From assembly GCA_003161615.1 (NCBI GenBank), contig PMOB01000007.1, forward strand, positions 33,828 to 97,827: a stretch of 64,000 nucleotides of DNA, in the 5' to 3' direction. This DNA is from Actinomycetota bacterium. GTDB taxonomy: Bacteria; Actinomycetota; Thermoleophilia; Gaiellales; Gaiellaceae. Positions within the stretch are counted from its first letter, which is position 1. Each line of letters opens with the position of its first letter. This document shows positions 5,051 to 50,220 of the stretch, one piece after another. The notes below the pieces were generated by a model. It made no database searches, had not been told where the DNA came from, and saw only the letters and a program-made list of their open reading frames with translations. The position numbers were made by a program, and so were the translations under genes.

Positions 5051-6414
5051 TGCATCTCCTCCCAGGCCTCGGCAAGAACCTCGCCGAGGATCCCGGTCAT
5101 CTCGTCGAACTGCGCCTGCGTCGCGATGAGCGGTGGCGAGATCTGGATCACGGGGTCGCCGCGGTCGTCCGCGCGGCAGATCAGACCCTTCTCGAACAAC
5201 CGCGGCGAGAGGAAGCCGCGCAGGAGCGTGTCGCACTCCTCGTCGCTGAACGTCTCCCGCGTCTCCTTGTCCTTGACGAGCTCGATCGCGTAGAAGAAGC
5301 CGGCGCCGCGGAGATCGCCGACGATCGGCAGGTCGAGGAGCTGCGCGAGCGTGGCGCGGAAGGCGTCCTCGTTCTCGAGGACGTGCTCGTTGATCCGCTC
5401 CCGCTTCATGATCTCGATGTTCTTGAGCGCGATCGCGCACATCACGGGGTGGCCGCCGAACGTGATGCCGTGCGAGTACATCGCGCCGCTCTCGAGGAAC
5501 GGCTCCATCACCTTGTCGGTCGTGACGACGGCGCCGATGGCCGCGTACGAGGAGGACAGGCCTTTCGCGGACGTGACGATGTCCGGCCGGATGTCGTACC
5601 GCTCGGAGGCGAACCAGTGACCGAGGCGCCCGAAGGCGGTGATCACCTCGTCGGCGGAGAGAAGGATGTCGTAGCGGTCGCAGAGCTCGCGCACTCCGGC
5701 CCAGTAGCCCGCGGGCGGAACGAACGAGCCACCCGCGTTCTGGACGGGCTCCATGTGGACGAGGCAGACGGTTTCAGGATCCATCTCGAGGATCGTCCGC
5801 TCGAGCTCCTCGAGGAGGAATGCGGTGAACTCCGCCTCCGTCTCGCCGTCCGGCCGGTGGTAGCGGTTGGTGTTGCTCACGTGCCGGACCTCCGGCACGA
5901 GCGGCTCGAACGGCGCGCGCAGCGCCTCGATGCCGTTGATCGAGAGCGCGCCCATCGTCGTGCCGTGGTACGCGATGTCGCGGGCGATCGCCTTGTACTT
6001 CTTGCCGGGCTCGAGCCCGTCGCGGACGGAGAAGTACTGCCGGGCGAGCTTCCACGCCGCCTCGACCGCCTCGGAGCCGCCCGAGACGAAGAAGACGCGG
6101 TTCAGATCGCCCGGCGCCAGCGACGCGACCTCCGCAGAGAGCTCGATCGCGCGCGGATGTGCATACGTCCAGTTCGTGTAGAAGGGCAGCTCGCGCATCT
6201 GCTCGTGCGCCGCCTGCCCGATCTCCTCCCCGAAGCCGTAGCCGAGGTTGACGGAGAAGAGGCCCGCGAGCGCGTCGAGGTAGCGCTTGCCCTCTAAGTC
6301 CTCGAGATAGCAGCCGTCGCCGCGGACGATGATCGGCGGCGGGTGCCCGCCCATCTGGGTGAAGTGGAGCCAGAGATGGTCGGCGGCGAGCCGGCGCAGG
6401 TCAGTTGCCGCCAC
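5047..6414 (-). CDS. Class-III (omega/putrescine-type) aminotransferase
   Basis: 455 aa; ...[20 protein letters not shown]..., [18 protein letters not shown] (PLP-lysine region). Confidence 0.9.
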
Positions 6415-39085: not shown

Positions 39086-40347
39086 GCAATCCTCCCTACG
39101 AGTACGCAGCCGTTGTGGCCGCCGAGGCCCATCGCGTTCGAGAGCGCCACGTCCACCTGCGCCTGCCGCGCCTCGTTCGGAACGTAGTCGAGATCGCAAT
39201 CCGGGTCGGGATGGACGTAGTTCATCGTCGGCGGCAGGACGCCGTCGCGGACCGCGAGGACGCACATCATCGCCTCGATCGCGCCGGCCGCTCCGAAGCA
39301 GTGACCGGTGACGGACTTCGTGGAAGAGACCGCGAGCTTGTAGGCGTGGTCACCGAAGACGGCCTTGATCGCATTCGTCTCGGCGAGGTCTCCCTGCGGC
39401 GTCGAGGTGCCGTGCGCGTTGATGTAGCCGACGCGTTCCGGCTCGACCCCGGCGCGCTCGAGCGCGTGCCGCATCATCTCCGCGACGCCGAGGGACTCGG
39501 GATCGGGTTGCGCGAGATGGTGCGCGTCGTTCGAGGCGCCATAGCCGAGAATCTCCGCGTAGATCGTGGCGCCGCGACGCTCGGCAGCCTCCAGCTCCTC
39601 GAGCACGAGGACGCACGCGCCCTCGCCCATCACGAAGCCCGCACGCGTCGCGTCGAACGGACGGGAGGCGCGGGGAGGGTGCTCCTCCTCGGCAGCCAGC
39701 CCGCGCATCGCGCAGAAGCCGGCGAGGATCAGCGGTGTGATGCACGCCTCGGAGCCGCCGGCGAGGACGGCGTCCGCATCGCCACGCTTGATCAGCTCCG
39801 CCGCCTCTCCCACCGCAGTCGAGCCGGTCGCGCAGGCGGAGACAGGCGCGTAGTTCGGGCCGCGGAAGCCGGTTGCGATCGCGAGCTGCCCGCTCGCGGT
39901 GTCGACGAGAACGTTGGGGATGAAGGTCGGCGCGACGCGGCCGGGGCCGCGTTCGCGCAGCACGTCGACCTGCTCGACGATCCCTGCGATCCCGCCGATC
40001 GCGGTGCCGAAGAGGATCCCGACCCGGTCCGGCGTGTACGCGCCGTCGAGCTTCGCGTCCGCCACCGCCTCACGCGCCGCTCCCAGCGCGAGCAGGACGT
40101 TGCGGTCGAGCCGGCGCGCCTCCTTCGGCGGCGCCACGGCGGATGGGTCGAAGTCCTTCACCTCGGCAGCGACCCGGACGGGGAAATCGCTCGCGTCGAA
40201 GGAGCTGATCCAGTCGATGCCGCTCTCTCCCGCGACGGCCGCGCGCCACGTCGACGGCGCATCGCCGCCGATCGGCGTCACCGCTCCGAGCCCCGTGACC
40301 ACAACCCTCCGCACATGTGCTCCTTCAGTTGATGTTTCTGCGTTCAT
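39082..40347 (-). CDS. fabF: Beta-ketoacyl-ACP synthase II
   Basis: RRVVVTGLGAVTPIG. Active-site Cys region (PVSACATGS), HGTSTPQGD, GHCFGAAG. Confidence 0.9.
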   Translation of the reverse strand: MNAETSTEGAHVRRVVVTGLGAVTPIGGDAPSTWRAAVAGESGIDWISSFDASDFPVRVAAEVKDFDPSAVAPPKEARRLDRNVLLALGAAREAVADAKLDGAYTPDRVGILFGTAIGGIAGIVEQVDVLRERGPGRVAPTFIPNVLVDTASGQLAIATGFRGPNYAPVSACATGSTAVGEAAELIKRGDADAVLAGGSEACITPLILAGFCAMRGLAAEEEHPPRASRPFDATRAGFVMGEGACVLVLEELEAAERRGATIYAEILGYGASNDAHHLAQPDPESLGVAEMMRHALERAGVEPERVGYINAHGTSTPQGDLAETNAIKAVFGDHAYKLAVSSTKSVTGHCFGAAGAIEAMMCVLAVRDGVLPPTMNYVHPDPDCDLDYVPNEARQAQVDVALSNAMGLGGHNGCVLVGRIA

Positions 40348-40492
40348 GGCGAGCGAAAAGCGAGCGAGGACGCCGCCTCGCGACGCTTTGCAGCCGCCAG
40401 GGACGCGGAGGGCATCTGCTGAAGGAGCACCAGTCGAGGTTACATTCGGGCCCGTGCCCGACGCCCCCGGCCCCAACGTCCCGTTCCCGCCG

Positions 40493-41476
40493 ATGGAGGC
40501 GGAGCTCGTCTCCGAGCTGCCGGTCGGAGGCGGCTGGCGCTACGAGCCGAAGTGGGACGGCTTCCGCGGCGTGCTCGAGAACGACGGCGGCGAGCTCGCG
40601 CTCTGGTCGCGCAACGGCCGGCCGCTGCTCCGCTACTTCCCGGAGCTGCGCGAGGTCGGCGAGCTGCTGCCGCCGCACTCCGCGCTCGACGGCGAGATCG
40701 TGATCGCGCGCGGCGGCGCACTCGACTTCGACGCGATGCAGATGCGCCTCCATCCGGCCGAGAGCCGCGTCCGCAAGCTCGCGGCGGAGATCCCCGCGAC
40801 GTTCGTCGCCTTCGACCTCCTGCTGTGGAAGGGGAAGCCGGTGCACGAGAAGCCGATCGAGAAGCGGCGCGCCGAGCTGGAGAAAGTCGCGGCCGGAACC
40901 GTCCAGCTCTCGCCCGTCTCCGACGATGTCGAGCAGGGACGCGAGTGGCTGCAGACGCTGCAGGCCGCCGGCTTCGACGGAGTCGTCGCCAAGCGGCTGG
41001 GACTGCCCTATCTACCCGGCTCGCGCGACGGCGTCGTCAAGGTCAAGCCGCACAAGACCGCGGACTGCGTCGTCGCCGGCATCCGCTGGAAGAAGGGCGG
41101 CCGCGAGACGATCGCCACGCTGCTTCTCGGCCTCTACGACAAGGACGGCAAACTGAACTACGTCGGCTCTGCGGCGGTCGGCGCGAAGAACCAGGCGGAG
41201 ATCGCCGCGAAGGTGCTCCCGCTGCTCGACAAGAAGAGCGACCGGCGCTTCAGCGAGCCGAACCGCTGGGGAACGGGCGAGCTCGAGGAGGCGCCGCTCA
41301 AGCCGAAGCTCGTCGTCGAGGTGCGCTTCGACAAGCTCGAGAAGCACCGCTTCCGGCACGGGACGCGTCTAATCCGGTTCCGCGAGGACAAGGACCCGGC
41401 CCAGTGCACCTGGCGCGAGGTTCGCCCGGCCCGAAGGCCGGACGACCTCGCTGTGGAGGATCTCCTCCGGAACTAG
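40493..41476 (+). CDS. ATP-dependent DNA ligase (LigC / LigD-ligase-domain type)
   Basis: Adenylation motif YEPKWDGFR, ...DGEIV..., FDGVVAKR, VKVKP. Confidence 0.9.
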   Translation: MEAELVSELPVGGGWRYEPKWDGFRGVLENDGGELALWSRNGRPLLRYFPELREVGELLPPHSALDGEIVIARGGALDFDAMQMRLHPAESRVRKLAAEIPATFVAFDLLLWKGKPVHEKPIEKRRAELEKVAAGTVQLSPVSDDVEQGREWLQTLQAAGFDGVVAKRLGLPYLPGSRDGVVKVKPHKTADCVVAGIRWKKGGRETIATLLLGLYDKDGKLNYVGSAAVGAKNQAEIAAKVLPLLDKKSDRRFSEPNRWGTGELEEAPLKPKLVVEVRFDKLEKHRFRHGTRLIRFREDKDPAQCTWREVRPARRPDDLAVEDLLRN

Positions 41477-42144
41477 ACGGTCGTCGCGGCCGGCGCGTCG
41501 GCCGTCCGCTGCACGAGCAGGAGACTCGAGAGCGCGACCCAGACCGCGAAGACGATGAAACCGATCAGCCCCATCCCGCCGCTGATCGAGAAGAAGCCCT
41601 TGCTCTTGACGGCGATGCCCGCGAGCAGGAACACGACGGAGCCGACGAGAGTCAGCCACGCGTACCAGTCCGGCAGCGCCTTCGAGCGCTTCGTCGCGAG
41701 CCAGCTTGCGAGCCCGAGTGCGGCGAGAGCCCAGAAGACCCGGCCGTACAGCCACGCATCGACGCCGTAGAGCGCCCTGACGGTGTTCGGATCGGTCGTG
41801 TACGAGAGCTTCTCGAGCGCGACGAGGATGCCGTCCGCAATCGCCGCGATCGCCACGGTCGCGACGCCCGCGCCGTAGACGATCGTCGCCAGCCGGCCCT
41901 GCCCTGCCTCGCGGAACATCCCGGCGAAGCTGGCGAGGAACCAGAGGAAGAGGATGTAGCCGACGCCGAAGAGCACCGCGCCGATCAGCAGTTCCTTGTG
42001 CTTCCCCTGCAGATAGGACTGGATGTCGCCGGCCGAGGCGTTCCATTTCTTCGGGCTGCCCGGCAACAAGTTGCCGACGACGAGCAGGATCGCGAACGCG
42101 AGACCCGTCGACGCCGCCCACCGCTCCACTGACCACTTGTTCAT
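41473..42144 (-). CDS. Hypothetical multi-pass membrane protein
   Basis: 223 aa with about six hydrophobic helices. No family recognised. Confidence 0.6.
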   Translation of the reverse strand: MNKWSVERWAASTGLAFAILLVVGNLLPGSPKKWNASAGDIQSYLQGKHKELLIGAVLFGVGYILFLWFLASFAGMFREAGQGRLATIVYGAGVATVAIAAIADGILVALEKLSYTTDPNTVRALYGVDAWLYGRVFWALAALGLASWLATKRSKALPDWYAWLTLVGSVVFLLAGIAVKSKGFFSISGGMGLIGFIVFAVWVALSSLLLVQRTADAPAATTV

Positions 42145-42189
42145 CTATCCCTCCCGGTTTGTGACCGATGGCACGATTCGGGTGGAGGG

Positions 42190-43236
42190 TCAGGACTCCT
42201 TCCGCGCGCGCGAGGGCTGGACGCGCTTCGGCTCGCCGGGCATCTTCGGGAAGTTCGGCGGATACGGCGCCTCGCCGACGCCTTCGGCCTCCTCCCGTTC
42301 CACCCACTCGAAGAGCTTGCGGAGGTCGCAGAGCGAGTCGTCGATCCCGGCCTGGACGTCGCCGAGCTCGGCGAACCGCGCCGGCATTGTGGCCATGGTG
42401 AAGTCCTCGGTCACGAGGCCGTCGAGCTCGTCCCAGCGGAACGGCGCGGAGACGGTCGCGTCGGGGCGAGCGCGGACGGAGTAGGCGGAGGCGATCGTCC
42501 GGTCGCGCGCGTTCTGGTTGTAGTCGATGAAGACGCGCTTGCCGCGCTCCTCCTTCCACCACGCGGTCGTCACGAGCTTCGGCGCGCGCCGCTCGATCTC
42601 GCGTGCGAAAGCGAGCGCGCAGCGGCGCACCTCGCGGAAGCCCCACTTCGGCTCGATCCGGCAGGCGATATGGATGCCGCGGTTTCCCGACGTCTTCGGC
42701 CAGCCGGCGAAGCCGAGCTCGTCGAGCGCCTCCTGCACGATCGCCGCGACCTGCTTCGCGTGTTTGAAAGTGGTGCCTGGCTGCGGGTCGACGTCGATCC
42801 GCAGCTCGTCGGGATGCTCGACATCCTTGCGCCGCGACGGCCACGGGTGGAAGTCGATCGTGCCGAGGTTCGCCGCCCACGCGACGTGCGCGAGCTCGGT
42901 GACGCAGAGTTCGTCGGCGGTGCGGCCGGAGGGAAACGTCACGGTCGCGGTCTCGATCCAGTCCGGCCGGTGCTGCGGCACGCGCTTCTGGTAGATCGCC
43001 TCGCCCTCCGCGCCGTCGGGGTGCCGCTTCAGCTGAGTCGGTCGCTCGTAGAGCGCGCGCACGATCCCGTCGCCGACCGAAAGGTAGTACTGGACGAGGT
43101 CGAGCTTCGTCTCCTTCCGCTTCCGGAAGAAGAGCTTGTCCGGGTTCGTCACCTTGACGGTGCGCTTCCCGACCTCGAGCTCGACAAAAGGGGAGTCGGC
43201 CATCTGCGGAGTATTCTGGCGGTCGTGTTGGAGCAT
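42190..43236 (-). CDS. NHEJ DNA polymerase/primase (LigD polymerase domain, stand-alone)
   Basis: VTNPDKLFF, ...DFHPWPSR..., RIDVDP, KTSGNRGIHI, FIDYNQNARDRT. An alternative start is MADSPF at 43203. Confidence 0.85.
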   Translation of the reverse strand: MLQHDRQNTPQMADSPFVELEVGKRTVKVTNPDKLFFRKRKETKLDLVQYYLSVGDGIVRALYERPTQLKRHPDGAEGEAIYQKRVPQHRPDWIETATVTFPSGRTADELCVTELAHVAWAANLGTIDFHPWPSRRKDVEHPDELRIDVDPQPGTTFKHAKQVAAIVQEALDELGFAGWPKTSGNRGIHIACRIEPKWGFREVRRCALAFAREIERRAPKLVTTAWWKEERGKRVFIDYNQNARDRTIASAYSVRARPDATVSAPFRWDELDGLVTEDFTMATMPARFAELGDVQAGIDDSLCDLRKLFEWVEREEAEGVGEAPYPPNFPKMPGEPKRVQPSRARKES

Positions 43237-43822: not shown

Positions 43823-45100
43823 CTACTCGGCGATGTCCGTTGCGGCCTTGAGCACCCGCAGCGCGCCTGACGTGTCGCCGTCGGCCTCGAGGAGATCGGC
43901 GAGCCTCCGGGAGGCCGAGAGGAGGTAGGGCTTCCCGTACTCCTTCAGCAGGTCGATTCCCCGCTGGTAGAGGCTTTTGGCCTGTTTGCCGTCCCCGACT
44001 GCGGCGAAGAGGTCTCCAAGGGTGACATAGGCGCGCCCGCGATCGCCGGGATCGATCCAGTCGATCAGCGCGAGCGCCTTCGCGCCGGCCTTCGCGGCCT
44101 GACTCCGGCGGCGGAGCAGCATGAGCGCCCGCGCCTCCTCGAGCGCGAACTTCGCTTCGTCGCGAGGGCTCATCTCGGCGCCGAAGAGCTCGCGGCCCTT
44201 CTGCAAGAGGCCGAGAGCAGCTTCCGCATTCCCGGCTTCGATCTCGGAGAAGGCCAGGAGGTGATAGGCCATTGCGACGTACGCGTCGTTTTCGGTTCGC
44301 TCGAGAATGTCGAGCGCCCGCCTCGCGTATCGCGCCGCGAGCTGCGGCTCGCTCCGGAGAGCATGCAGTCGAGACTGCGACCAGTAGAGGCGAGCCTCGA
44401 CGAGGGGGTCCTCGAGCTCGCTCGCGAGCTGGATCACGCCGGCCAGCGTTTCCTCGGCGTCGCCGAGCGTGCCGTGGTCGATGAGGGCATTCGCGAGCAG
44501 GACGGCGAAGCGCAACTCCTCGAGCCGGGCCGACGCGGCCTTGGCCGCCTCGAGCGCCTGACTGAAGAGCGCGATCGCGCTTTCGCGGTCTCCCGCGGTC
44601 GCGTAGGCACGGCCGAGCGTCTCGACGGCACCTGGATCGATGAGGAAGGAGCGCTCGCGCACCTTGAGCGCGTGCTCCAGATAGTCGATCGCCTCGGCCA
44701 CACGCTCCTCGCGAAAGGCGATCTGGCCAAGGCCGGCCAGCGCGGCGGCGTAGGCGGGATCCGAGGGCCGCAGGCGGGCCTGGAAGAGCTGGCGCGCCTC
44801 GTCGAGATCCCCGAGGCGGGCCGCGACCTCGGCATCGAGGATCTCGGCGGGATTCTCTCCGCCGAGCTGTTCCACTCCGGCTGCAAGCCATTCCGGCGAG
44901 ACGCCGAGCCTCCGTGCCAGCTCGTGGATCAGCTGTAGGGACGGAACACGCGCGCCGGCCTCGATGCGGCTGATGTAAGGGGCGGTGCAGTTCGGGAACG
45001 AGAGCTCGCGCTGCGTCATCCCGGCGTTCTCGCGGGCCAGGCGCAGCCGGATCGCCAACTGTTTCGGACCGTCGACGTGGGTGGCTGGGGCGCGGGGCAC
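43823..45100 (-). CDS. XRE-family HTH + TPR-repeat transcriptional regulator
   Basis: GTG start. LRLARENAGMTQRELSFPNCTAPYISRIEAGARVPSLQLIHELARRLGV (HTH_XRE), followed by about 330 aa of TPR-like helical repeats. Confidence 0.85.
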   Translation of the reverse strand: MPRAPATHVDGPKQLAIRLRLARENAGMTQRELSFPNCTAPYISRIEAGARVPSLQLIHELARRLGVSPEWLAAGVEQLGGENPAEILDAEVAARLGDLDEARQLFQARLRPSDPAYAAALAGLGQIAFREERVAEAIDYLEHALKVRERSFLIDPGAVETLGRAYATAGDRESAIALFSQALEAAKAASARLEELRFAVLLANALIDHGTLGDAEETLAGVIQLASELEDPLVEARLYWSQSRLHALRSEPQLAARYARRALDILERTENDAYVAMAYHLLAFSEIEAGNAEAALGLLQKGRELFGAEMSPRDEAKFALEEARALMLLRRRSQAAKAGAKALALIDWIDPGDRGRAYVTLGDLFAAVGDGKQAKSLYQRGIDLLKEYGKPYLLSASRRLADLLEADGDTSGALRVLKAATDIAE

Positions 45101-45121
45101 GACTCCATCTTAGTTCCCAGT

Positions 45122-45133
45122 TAAGGCGCCTTA
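45122..45133. promoter_or_regulatory. Perfect 12-bp palindrome in the divergent promoter region (operator candidate)
   Basis: TAAGGCGCCTTA, 22 nt upstream of the regulator's GTG and 111 nt upstream of the mini-gene's GTG. Confidence 0.35.
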
Positions 45134-45243
45134 CTCGCGTAACTGTCCCTGCCAGTCGGGTTTGCCAGATAGGCGACCCGCACGAACAATGTCCGAACCC
45201 CCGGGGGCTCGCTCATTCACTTCGAACTCAAAGGAGCAGCCCC

Positions 45244-45330
45244 GTGCGTCGTTTCCTCTTGCCTGCTGTCCTAGCCGTGCTCGTGATCGCCGGCTCGATG
45301 TTTCTCGCCTCCGGGCCGTACTGGCCGTAG
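45244..45330 (+). CDS. 28-aa signal-peptide-like mini-protein MRRFLLPAVLAVLVIAGSMFLASGPYWP (candidate pro-peptide or small membrane protein)
   Basis: AAGGAG lies 7 nt upstream of GTG 45244. G/C-rich third positions. TAG stop at 45328-45330, followed 14 nt later by a 12-bp hairpin. Confidence 0.4.
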   Translation: MRRFLLPAVLAVLVIAGSMFLASGPYWP

Positions 45331-45344
45331 GAAGCTCGCGACCT

Positions 45345-45372
45345 CGCGGGTGGCGGTTCTCCGCCACCCGCG
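45345..45372. terminator. Bidirectional terminator-like hairpin
   Basis: CGCGGGTGGCGG-ttct-CCGCCACCCGCG. It lies between the convergent mini-gene and the REC-EAL gene. Confidence 0.5.
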
Positions 45373-48753: not shown

Positions 48754-50220
48754 GTGTACGATTGGCGCTTGATGCATTTTCGTCACGAGGGTCTGATCTA
48801 CGAGTCGGAACAGGCGCTTACGGATGTTTTGACTCCCGTTCTGCTGGAGGCCGCCGAGGCACAGCAGCCGATGCTCGTTGCCCTCCCCCCCGAGCAGACG
48901 GAGCATCTGCGTGCACGCCTCGGCGGAGCTGCGGACCGCGTCACCTTCCTCGACCACGACGCGTGGTACACACGCCCTGGACTTGCATGCGTCGCGTGGG
49001 CGAATGCCGTCGACGCCGCGCTCGAGACGGGCGCCAGCATGGTTTGCGCCGTCGGCGAGCCACCGCTCGCGCGCGATGTGGGTCGCGAAGGACGCTGGAC
49101 GCGCTACGAATCGCTCTTCAACCAGCTCTACACCGACCGTCCTGTCCGGTTCATCTGCCCGTACGACGCGCGGACGCTCTCCGACGAGGGGCTCGCGGTC
49201 TGCCGCCACACGCATCCGACGCTGGCGACAAGCGGGGGACGGACGGCGAGCGCTGAGTACTTCGCCGGACATTTTCGCCCGACCTTCGCGCCGCTGCTCG
49301 ACTCGGGGCGCGCGGACGCGAGCACGGCGACCGCCACAGTGCCGGCCGAGGCCGTCAGCCTGCGTGTGCCCATCGTGTGGGCTGCGTACGAGCTCCGTCT
49401 CTCGATTGCGGACGCCCAGGACCTGGCTCTCGCCGTGACCCAGCTCGCCCACTGGGCGCTCGCGGCCGGGAGCGGCCCTGTGAAAGGGCGGGCGTCGAAG
49501 CAGGCGTTCGGTCTGGTGTGCGAGGTCGCGCTCTCGGGCACGAGCGCGACGAGCCTTACCTCCGGAGAGGGCCGTTTTGCGCTCGCCGTGGGCGGCATCG
49601 TCGCCGACCGGGTCGAGTTCGGCGACGACGAGAACGGCGGGCTGGTCCGCTTCGTCGTCTCGCTGCCAGAGCTCGGGCCGCGCGAGCGGATCCTCGCCGC
49701 GGCGCAGGAACTCTTCAGCCGCGAGGGCATGAGGCGCACGAGCGTGAACGCGATCGCGGCGCGCGCCAACGTCGCCAAGGCGACCTTTTACTCGCTCTTC
49801 CCCTCGAAGGACGAGCTCATCCGAGAGTCGCTCCGCCGCGGGATCGAGCAGTGGGACACGTACGCGCGGGCCGAGGTCGAGGAGCGCGCGGAGTCGCCGC
49901 GCGACCGGATCCTCGCCTGGTTCGACGTGCTCGCAGAGTGGGCGGAGCTCGACGTAAGCGCGGTGTCGTCGCGCCTGCGGATCTGGAGCGAGGTGCAGGA
50001 TCCGCTTCATCCCGGGCGGGAGCAGCAGGCGGAGAGCACCGAGGCGGTACGCGACTACCTCCGCGACCTCGCGAGCGCCTGTGCAGTCGACCCCGAGGTC
50101 CTTTCCCAGGAGCTTCAACTCCTCGCGTCCGGTGCGCTCCTCGAGACGATCTATCTCGGCTCGGCCAAGCCGATCCGGGTGGCCGGCGCTGCGGCCGCGA
50201 AGCTCCTCGCGTCCGCCTAG
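48754..50220 (+). CDS. MEDS domain + central anti-sigma/ATPase-like region + C-terminal TetR-type HTH regulator (unusual fusion)
   Basis: N-terminus HFRHEGLIYESEQAL...VRFICPYD...CRHTHP (MEDS pattern). Residues ~305-350 are RERILAAAQELFSREGMRRTSVNAIAARANVAKATFYSLFPSKDELI (TetR HTH). Confidence 0.75.
   Translation: MYDWRLMHFRHEGLIYESEQALTDVLTPVLLEAAEAQQPMLVALPPEQTEHLRARLGGAADRVTFLDHDAWYTRPGLACVAWANAVDAALETGASMVCAVGEPPLARDVGREGRWTRYESLFNQLYTDRPVRFICPYDARTLSDEGLAVCRHTHPTLATSGGRTASAEYFAGHFRPTFAPLLDSGRADASTATATVPAEAVSLRVPIVWAAYELRLSIADAQDLALAVTQLAHWALAAGSGPVKGRASKQAFGLVCEVALSGTSATSLTSGEGRFALAVGGIVADRVEFGDDENGGLVRFVVSLPELGPRERILAAAQELFSREGMRRTSVNAIAARANVAKATFYSLFPSKDELIRESLRRGIEQWDTYARAEVEERAESPRDRILAWFDVLAEWAELDVSAVSSRLRIWSEVQDPLHPGREQQAESTEAVRDYLRDLASACAVDPEVLSQELQLLASGALLETIYLGSAKPIRVAGAAAAKLLASA

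Follow-up and report, generated by a model that had tools for sequence, protein, structure and literature searches.

A signal-peptide-like mini-gene paired with a helix-turn-helix/TPR regulator as a candidate peptide-signalling cassette of the Gaiellales

In a 64,000-nt stretch of DNA from an Actinomycetota bacterium of the family Gaiellaceae (contig PMOB01000007.1 of assembly GCA_003161615.1; 69% G+C; the whole stretch is hereafter called the window), a gene for a regulator with an XRE-type helix-turn-helix (HTH) domain and a series of tetratricopeptide repeats (TPRs) lies divergent from a mini-gene of 28 codons with a signal-peptide-like product. Comparison with related genomes at the sequence level shows that the mini-gene is genetically coupled to the regulator. 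By analogy with known systems, we judge it slightly better than an even bet that the two genes form a peptide/receptor cassette that works like SHP/Rgg, PrgQ/PrgX and PapR/PlcR and is built on a canonical TPR scaffold not homologous to theirs. The pair had been picked out in a sequence-only reading of the window, and all the features described in that reading were located in the sequence where it had placed them.

The comparison set consisted of 80 loci (L001-L080) from species-representative genomes, amounting to 925 kb in all, with titles that nearly all name Gaiellales, Gaiellaceae, Thermoleophilia or unclassified Actinomycetota; relatives from beyond this set are numbered L081-L084. Approximately 1,900 homologues of the regulator were found. 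The best 120 of these have 59-97% identity, and the named carriers among them are Gaiellaceae or Thermoleophilia metagenome-assembled genomes (MAGs). At E<=1e-30 the regulator family comprises 152 clusters (50% identity). One 4.8-kb contig of the set (L037, JAICUZ010000207.1) carries a typical Gaiellales-type regulator in a MAG labelled Burkholderiales, which is probably a binning error.

Conservation of the mini-gene and its pairing with the regulator

The mini-gene (45244 to 45330, + strand) runs from GTG to TAG, encodes the product VRRFLLPAVLAVLVIAGSMFLASGPYWP and is separated from the regulator start by 143 nt. It is preceded by the Shine-Dalgarno sequence AAGGAG (45231 to 45236, +), 7 nt before the GTG, and AAGGAG or GAGGAG is near-invariant in relatives. 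Judged from its translation, conservation and coding signature, this small open reading frame (mini-ORF) is a real, conserved protein-coding gene. Codon analysis of 27 distinct 87-nt versions found Trp27 and Pro28 to be invariant, with changes at the conserved Ala9, Ala21, Asp22 and Pro28 codons falling on third positions. Entropy in these versions was lowest at codon position 2 (21.3), with 29.7 at position 1 and 29.9 at position 3.

Statistics on 70 distinct peptide sequences describe a product of 25-35 residues (median 28) that always carries Arg or Lys within its first six residues (70/70). Its core of approximately 15-19 hydrophobic residues (median hydropathy of the best 15-residue segment, 2.37) is uncharged in 66 of the 70 peptides. 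A Trp is present among the last four residues in 68, and in 47 an acidic residue lies 4-9 positions before the C-terminus, which can be likened to mature SHP pheromones. The C-terminal tail, whose conservation the sequence-only reading had proposed as a check, is the most conserved part of the peptide, not the membrane span. Tails are of the types …A-D-x2-4-Y-W-P, …PWW and …PWGP and share a near-invariant Trp. Tail sequence follows the regulator clade, and close relatives differ at single positions (DATYWP/DTTYWP/DITYWP; DFPTYWP/DFPTWWP/DFPTSWP/DFPTPWP). We regard the mini-gene product as a candidate pro-peptide, with the C-terminal xxGPYWP as its presumed active part.

Other identities for the peptide were considered and rejected. 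A Tat signal does not fit, given that the N-terminal Arg-Arg of the window peptide varies and many relatives begin MSR, MCR or MRY. No Cys lies near the hydrophobic/tail junction in 31 sequences of the main clade (the group whose gene order is described below), and hence there is no lipobox and no lipoprotein signal. The possibility that the mini-ORF is a duplicated signal peptide of the NlpC/P60 hydrolase found beside it in most relatives was unsupported (local alignment score of 23.1 vs 19.4 +/- 4.5 for shuffled sequences). Scans of six representative peptides against Pfam and NCBIfam returned no meaningful match. The mini-gene is also absent from the gene calls listed for the retrieved contigs; to our knowledge, genes of 87 nt are below the minimum ORF reported by common gene callers.

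A reading in which the ORF is incidental to a structured small RNA of ~180 nt would draw on the conserved hairpins at both ends of the transcript and on a peptide without any Pfam or NCBIfam match. We find this reading hardly credible: the frame, the length of 25-35 codons, the Shine-Dalgarno sequence and the classes of residue are all kept despite nucleotide divergence, and the conserved codons vary at their third positions. Rfam likewise held no match for the mini-gene, for the intergenic region or for any of seven related loci.

An ORF of 25-35 codons adjoins the regulator in approximately 70 of the 80 loci, and the association holds down to ~30% regulator identity (including L083 and L084). 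The sequence-only reading had named absence or loss of frame in syntenic relatives as refuting its view of the mini-ORF; in these ~70 loci the mini-ORF is present and in frame, and so came through that test. A generic first screen took any hydrophobic ORF of 18-70 codons within 500 nt before the regulator and yielded MYRFTSLAALATLAAVAAFLADLGPYWP, …AADLVTYWP, …GADFPTYWP and …AALNAGLPWW. We refined the pattern to a signal-like mini-ORF ending W-x(0-2), divergent and 100-600 nt from the regulator, which was matched in 59 of the 80 loci against an expectation of ~0.5; elsewhere the same pattern occurs ~24 times in 925 kb, counting both strands. Pairs of HTH-TPR genes and small hydrophobic ORFs, a search for which had been suggested from the window alone, are thus found among relatives, and the pairing outlasts gene rearrangement.

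The nearest relative shows little change: L082, with a regulator 97% identical to that of the window, has a mini-ORF with one conservative amino-acid change and one synonymous change. In L081 (regulator 76% identical, in another gene neighbourhood) the peptide core has diverged and the GPYWP tail is the same. The mini-ORF is co-directional with the regulator in nine loci, where it lies 76-108 nt upstream of regulators ~40% identical to the window's, and variant tails are found in L066 and L071. A subfamily at ~30% regulator identity has divergent mini-ORFs ending …VQWGP (L083) and …GVGWGP (L084). L070 carries three tandem mini-ORFs between 143 and 530 nt before the regulator; each has a ribosome-binding site of its own, and all end LNGSGPWVP.

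More than one cassette can occur in a single MAG. SMAG_U13887 (L025, L059) has both a divergent cassette (…DFPTWWP) and a co-directional one (…AAEGSIWPGI), a combination that points to paralogous systems. The two cassettes of MFD04967.bin.3.124 (L024, L031) share synteny and may represent two strains in one bin; the L031 copy of the mini-ORF is decayed or frameshifted.

The mini-ORF was never encountered apart from the regulator in the loci examined. The two occur together without an NlpC/P60 gene in the window, in the co-directional clade and in distant clades. The converse is seen in L037, L040, L041 and L044, where the regulator is directly divergent from NlpC/P60 and the mini-ORF is absent, and in L036, from a sister lineage, where a clean deletion of the 5' untranslated region (5'UTR), mini-ORF and terminator (5880-5960) has fused the peptide promoter to the NlpC/P60 leader; all of these are receptor-only, 'eavesdropper-like' variants. 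Because the regulator pairs with the mini-ORF in the absence of NlpC/P60 and with NlpC/P60 in the absence of the mini-ORF, and because the mini-ORF is never found alone, the regulator is the hub of the locus, with the mini-ORF as its most constant partner. A scan of IMG/VR viral contigs for the regulator found no relatives and so gave no link to phages. The cassette is chromosomal, vertically inherited and ancestral to the order.

The regulator and its relation to known peptide receptors

The regulator gene (43823 to 45100, - strand) starts with GTG and encodes a 425-aa protein, a candidate cytoplasmic peptide receptor and transcription factor. Its predicted plan of an HTH domain followed by TPRs was borne out by Pfam. 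The XRE-type DNA-binding domain (aa 14-72; 44885 to 45061, -) matches HTH_31 (7.6e-11; 42.6 bits, cut-off 27) and HTH_3 (9.7e-10; 38.8 bits, cut-off 23), of the XRE-family entries PF01381 and PF13560. Several TPR families match over aa 85-420, among them TPR_12 (3e-22), TPR_MalT (PF17874; 8.8e-18) and TPR_2, with TPR_MalT above its gathering threshold (65.1 bits, threshold 45). Pfam matches and an AlphaFold2 model together delimit a TPR superhelix of ~8 repeats (aa 85-424; 43829 to 44848, -), the presumed ligand-binding domain. In the model, built from a 20-sequence alignment (pLDDT 87.8, pTM 0.73), the HTH at the N-terminus is joined through residues 77-81, a linker of low confidence, to approximately eight helix-pair repeats. 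Pfam detected HTH and TPR domains alone in the 425 residues, with no ATPase module of the STAND/MalT type (NOD/AAA). Invariant residues of the regulator include N203, W239, Q241, R243, H245, Y257, R259/R260 and E266-N270.

The regulator had been called RRNPP-like, after the Rgg, Rap, NprR, PlcR and PrgX group of receptors, and this label holds for architecture and fails for family membership. The C-terminal TPR-type sensor and the N-terminal XRE-type HTH, the latter found in all RRNPP(A) subfamilies but Rap, are both present. When a profile of the regulator family was searched against PDB sequences, the HTH domains of PlcR, C.AhdI and SinR were matched; PlcR was matched over its HTH alone (residues 13-67, E=1.6e-6), the only segment of any RRNPP protein to be matched, and among the 60 sequences listed no RRNPP chain was matched past the HTH. 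A comparison of the TPR domain with PlcR, NprR and Rap, suggested with the original label, led elsewhere. The best Foldseek matches in the PDB were designed consensus TPRs and the TPR domains of LGN/Pins, the latter with the best E-values; domain III of MalT (PDB 1hz4) had the top TM-score, 0.62. A fold search of BFVD returned generic viral TPR proteins only, and no AimR. The NsdA family of Streptomyces (NCBIfam NF053720) scored 46 bits, below its cut-off of 75 and over aa 251-424 only, and the other NCBIfam matches were sub-threshold TPR families. Membership of the RRNPP family by homology was therefore rejected, the sensor domain having no detectable sequence-profile match to a known subfamily and no fold match to one in the top 50. 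On these comparisons the regulator has RRNPP architecture without detectable sensor-domain homology, and we do not assign it to that family.

The design of the locus can nevertheless be set beside known systems. In the SHP/Rgg and ComS/ComR systems of streptococci (for published accounts see PMC7564271, PMC5131891 and PMC9765709), an ORF of ~17-35 codons encodes a peptide with a basic N-terminus and a hydrophobic body. The active pheromone is the C-terminal 7-9 residues, in many cases beginning at a conserved Asp or Glu. As a rule the ORF is divergent from a cytoplasmic receptor of the XRE-HTH and TPR type, with targets beside the peptide gene. Some ComS peptides contain a Trp-Trp motif. The peptides of the present family are similar in that most tails run from Asp to YWP, with PWW as the ending in some clades. 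The receptor is unlike Rgg in having ~425 aa and ~8 canonical TPRs rather than ~285-300 aa and degenerate repeats. It also gives no signal with hidden Markov models (HMMs) of Rgg or ComR, is not linked to PptAB, Eep or Opp, and comes from Actinomycetota with 69% GC.

Similar likenesses and differences are seen with other systems. The PrgQ (iCF10)/PrgX system of the enterococcal plasmid pCF10 (for a review see PMC6540685) has a signal-peptide-like ORF of ~23 codons with a C-terminal heptapeptide ligand, divergent from its receptor gene across a shared operator. PrgX/PrgQ resides on a plasmid, governs conjugation and occurs in enterococci only (PMC9765709), whereas the present cassette is chromosomal, order-ancestral and absent from viral contigs. 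In PapR/PlcR and NprX/NprR of the Bacillus cereus group, an HTH and TPR receptor senses the C-terminal hepta- or octapeptide of an adjacent exported pro-peptide and a receptor dimer sits on a palindromic box. The PapR and NprX pro-peptides, at 40-48 residues, have a separate Sec signal and are encoded downstream on the same strand, and the receptors show no detectable TPR-domain homology to the present regulator. TPR_MalT is the best whole-domain sequence family of the regulator, yet MalT itself, a maltotriose sensor, belongs to the STAND ATPases and carries an HTH of the LuxR type. LGN serves as a scaffold in eukaryotes. An XRE HTH and a cognate mini-gene are lacking in both.

Control elements and gene neighbourhood

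The promoter region shared by the two genes contains an operator-like palindrome, GTTAAGGCGCCTTAC (45120 to 45134), with a perfect 12-bp core, TAAGGCGCCTTA, at 45122-45133. Apart from its own reverse-strand reading, no further copy is found in the 64 kb, and the search thus defines no regulon. L082 has the identical GTTAAGGCGCCTTAC. The suggestion that the palindrome serves as an operator gains from relatives, where the intergenic alignment places an inverted repeat at a fixed position by the regulator start: GTCAA-N5-TTGAC in many main-clade loci, GTCAGGCGCCTGAC in L060 and L062, and TCCGGGCGCCCGGA in L051. The pattern GTCA[AC]N4-6[GT]TGAC has 22 matches in 925 kb, 15 of them within 80 nt of a regulator start.

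The regulator gene is preceded by a -10-like hexamer, TAAGAT (45107 to 45112, -), at a distance of 6 nt from the GTG. Among the 61 loci with a match starting at ATG or GTG, 53 have a TANNNT hexamer whose end is 4-8 nt short of the regulator start, and the stretches inspected upstream of the regulator showed no Shine-Dalgarno sequence. Because the hexamer lies so close to the start codon, the regulator mRNA is probably leaderless. A single promoter-like site directed towards the mini-ORF came out of a consensus scan (TTGCCA, 17 nt, AACAAT; 45162 to 45190, +), and the aligned position in relatives reads TTGnnn, 17-18 nt, AnnAAT. Going by consensus positions only, the palindrome would overlap the would-be -35 region of the regulator and lie ~70 nt upstream of the predicted start of the peptide mRNA, near 45197.

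The 5'UTR of the peptide mRNA contains a conserved element (45198 to 45243, +) that was defined by minimum-free-energy folding and covariation. It opens with the near-invariant CCCCCGGGGG and comprises a C5G5 run (45198-45207) and a hairpin in which 45204-45214 pairs with 45234-45243; the C-run cannot pair with the adjacent G-run. Most loci have GGGCUGUC…GACAGCCC as the hairpin, and the window has GGGGCU-GCUC…GAGCAGCCCC. The Shine-Dalgarno sequence lies inside the hairpin, whose end is 2-4 nt short of the start codon. Across 35 aligned relatives, pairing was kept in 96% of cells vs 28-49% for slid controls, and three of the eight pairs showed compensatory double changes. Divergent members form an equivalent hairpin from different sequences, and the co-directional clade has the same design. 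Such conservation points to control of the peptide mRNA at the level of translation or stability.

Occlusion of a ribosome-binding site by a hairpin is a common restraint on toxins, and the size and hydrophobicity of the peptide would fit a small membrane toxin of the type I kind, or a bacteriocin-like peptide, that is repressed by the XRE regulator. We think this very unlikely. Neither an antisense RNA nor an immunity gene is evident, and the setting is conserved, chromosomal and among housekeeping and cell-envelope genes rather than mobile, with no relatives in IMG/VR. A simple repressor would have no need of a 340-residue TPR sensor, and it is the short polar/aromatic tail, not the membrane span, that is under selection.

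A terminator-type hairpin with a 12-bp GC stem, a 4-nt loop and no U tract begins 14 nt after the stop codon (45345 to 45372, +). Strong hairpins within 70 nt of the mini-ORF stop were found in 56 of 58 related loci, with a mean dG of -40.9 kcal/mol vs -26.4 kcal/mol for random 70-mers (p=4e-25). In ~20 main-clade loci (for example L007, 5686-5760, -) a separate conserved motif, reading CACCTTTCGGGGGATGCGAT or CTTTTCGGGGGAGGCG, is found past the mini-ORF terminator and before NlpC/P60; it matches no Rfam family and could be a leader, processing or anti-termination site.

The stable hairpin past the stop, together with the invariant Trp-Pro-stop end that recalls arrest peptides, raises the alternative of a cis-acting leader peptide. 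A ribosome at Trp-Pro-stop would then control termination or read-through, as in TnaC- or trp-type attenuation, or monitor secretion capacity. The 5'UTR hairpin points to translational control, as this alternative would have it, and the L036 deletion, which joins the promoter to the NlpC/P60 leader, suggests one transcription unit. We consider such a leader improbable, however. The next gene in the window is convergent, which leaves nothing to attenuate, and nine loci have the regulator, with its own -10 element and leaderless start, as the next gene. The distance from stop to hairpin varies widely. A trpL- or TnaC-type leader would also need neither the conserved basic N-terminus (70/70) nor the uncharged core, and here the body of the peptide is constrained. 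Moreover, given the established length of the ribosome tunnel, a 28-residue peptide has not yet left it when translation terminates, and it cannot sense translocation co-translationally.

The genes around the cassette differ between lineages. In the main clade the order away from the regulator, on the opposite strand, is mini-ORF, NlpC/P60, often a PAS hybrid kinase, and next a DegT aminotransferase; the NlpC/P60 protein is a hydrolase of ~480 aa with a signal peptide. No NlpC/P60 homologue is present in the 64-kb window, which retains the kinase in inverted orientation and has a convergent REC-EAL gene in the place of NlpC/P60. This REC-EAL neighbour had been highlighted in the sequence-only reading. 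Its adjacency is confined to the lineage of the window, being found in the window and L082 only; L081 has other neighbours, and most relatives have the NlpC/P60 cell-wall hydrolase after the mini-ORF. In distant clades the neighbours are housekeeping genes, such as those for P5C reductase, a glyoxalase-fold protein and PFOR, with no transporter among them. The output of the cassette in most lineages is likely to be NlpC/P60.

The position of the main-clade mini-ORF, directly upstream of a secreted NlpC/P60 hydrolase and on the same strand, also fits a different account, in which the mini-protein stays in the membrane as a single-pass protein that acts on an extracytoplasmic partner, for example by anchoring, activating or inhibiting NlpC/P60, and the HTH-TPR protein is a local transcription factor sensing something else. 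The 15-19 uncharged residues of the core are long enough to span a membrane, the match to a cleavage site is poor, and the TPR domain resembles domain III of MalT, a small-molecule sensor. We rate this account as unlikely, if still to be reckoned with. The mini-ORF stays by the regulator where there is no nearby NlpC/P60 (in the window, the co-directional clade and the distant clades), and the short tail, not the span, is best conserved. The triple copies in L070 would suit a dosage-dependent signal over a stoichiometric partner. Tail sequences that track the regulator clade and differ at single positions between close relatives, like the threefold amplification in L070, speak more for a signal than for a structural membrane protein.

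The remaining neighbours in the window lie on either side of the cassette. On one side the convergent REC-EAL gene is followed by the PAS/HisKA/HATPase/REC hybrid kinase and a MEDS-TetR protein. The last of these (48754-50220, +; 488 aa) has an N-terminal MEDS sensory domain and a TetR_N HTH and is present in L082 too. On the other side is a LigD primase-polymerase. Repair genes of the non-homologous end-joining type occupy 39899-43236 as separate ORFs: the LigD primase-polymerase domain protein is encoded at 42190-43236 (-) and an ATP-dependent DNA ligase at ~40500-41476 (+). The listed start of the ligase ORF, 39899, overlaps an opposite-strand ketoacyl synthase gene, and the true start is probably later.

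A candidate signalling circuit and its implications

If the two genes form a peptide/receptor cassette, the positive-inside rule predicts that the 28-residue product would insert into or cross the membrane with its N-terminus inside and its tail outside. Signal peptidase or an intramembrane protease would then cut near the conserved (G/A)-A|D/E junction and free a peptide of 6-9 residues ending (Y/F/P)-W-(P/G/W), approximately SGPYWP in the window. This peptide would build up outside the cell, be re-imported and bind the concave face of the regulator's TPR superhelix; the TPRs of LGN/Pins, among the best structural matches, bind extended peptides in their inner groove. Peptide binding would alter the occupancy of the palindrome by a regulator dimer. 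Because the palindrome overlaps the predicted regulator promoter and lies ~70 nt upstream of the predicted peptide-mRNA start, it would be well placed both for autorepression and for control of the peptide promoter. In most Gaiellales the likely output would be the secreted NlpC/P60 hydrolase encoded after the mini-gene; in the lineage of the window that neighbouring gene has given way to the convergent REC-EAL gene.

Several observations weigh against this circuit. In none of the clades examined does the cassette have a linked gene for an exporter, a protease or an oligopeptide permease. No RRNPP-specific Pfam family is found in the regulator at E<=0.1, and PlcR, NprR, Rap, AimR, Rgg and PrgX are all missing from its top 50 Foldseek matches in the PDB or BFVD. 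Domain III of MalT binds a sugar, so the ligand of the TPR domain need not be a peptide. The window peptide does not have the Asp that most relatives have, and the junction before the tail has mostly Phe, Leu or Ile at position -3, unlike the classic Ala-X-Ala signal-peptidase site. In addition, a subclade without the mini-ORF (in the L036-L044 group) keeps the regulator.

The circuit would be the first of its kind in its phylum. The sequence-only reading had stated that RRNPP-type signalling is described essentially for Firmicutes and their phages, and the published surveys consulted do confine it to Bacillota and their mobile elements, with small molecules as the signals of Actinomycetota (PMC10075063, PMC9765709, PMC12700828, PMC4748050). 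RRNPP_detector was applied to Firmicutes and viruses only, in a study that describes Actinomycetota as typically using enzyme-made small molecules (PMC10075063). With HMMs of seven RRNPPA subfamilies run on 13,513 complete bacterial genomes, Felipe-Ruiz et al. obtained matches in Firmicutes only (PMC9765709). A structural phylogeny from 2025 treats the RRNPP family as belonging to Bacillota (PMC12700828), and no peptide/TPR-receptor system is among those listed in a review of quorum sensing in actinobacteria (PMC4748050). Our full-text literature searches found no such cassette described for Actinomycetota. The mini-gene/HTH-TPR pairs form a new family spanning the order Gaiellales, and the signalling circuit that we predict from them would belong to a phylum where none was known.

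The more specific proposal, to which we give a little less than an even chance, is that Gaiellales use a peptide pheromone of ~6-9 residues ending in Trp-Pro that is sensed by an XRE-TPR receptor which arose independently of the RRNPP receptors of Firmicutes. This would be the first peptide quorum sensing with an intracellular receptor outside Bacillota, ancestral to the order, with pherotype-like variants and mostly controlling NlpC/P60. If the proposal is true, either this circuit design has arisen repeatedly, or its age and divergence are much greater than has been supposed. With a mini-gene of only 87 nt, whole families of such signals may be absent from annotated genomes. The proposal is readily testable: the candidate ligands are short, unmodified and synthesisable, the operator is defined and the model of the regulator is confident. 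Gaiellales are among the commonest soil Actinomycetota, and a circuit of this kind, if true, would provide a lead on how cell-wall remodelling is coordinated in abundant, poorly cultivable soil bacteria.

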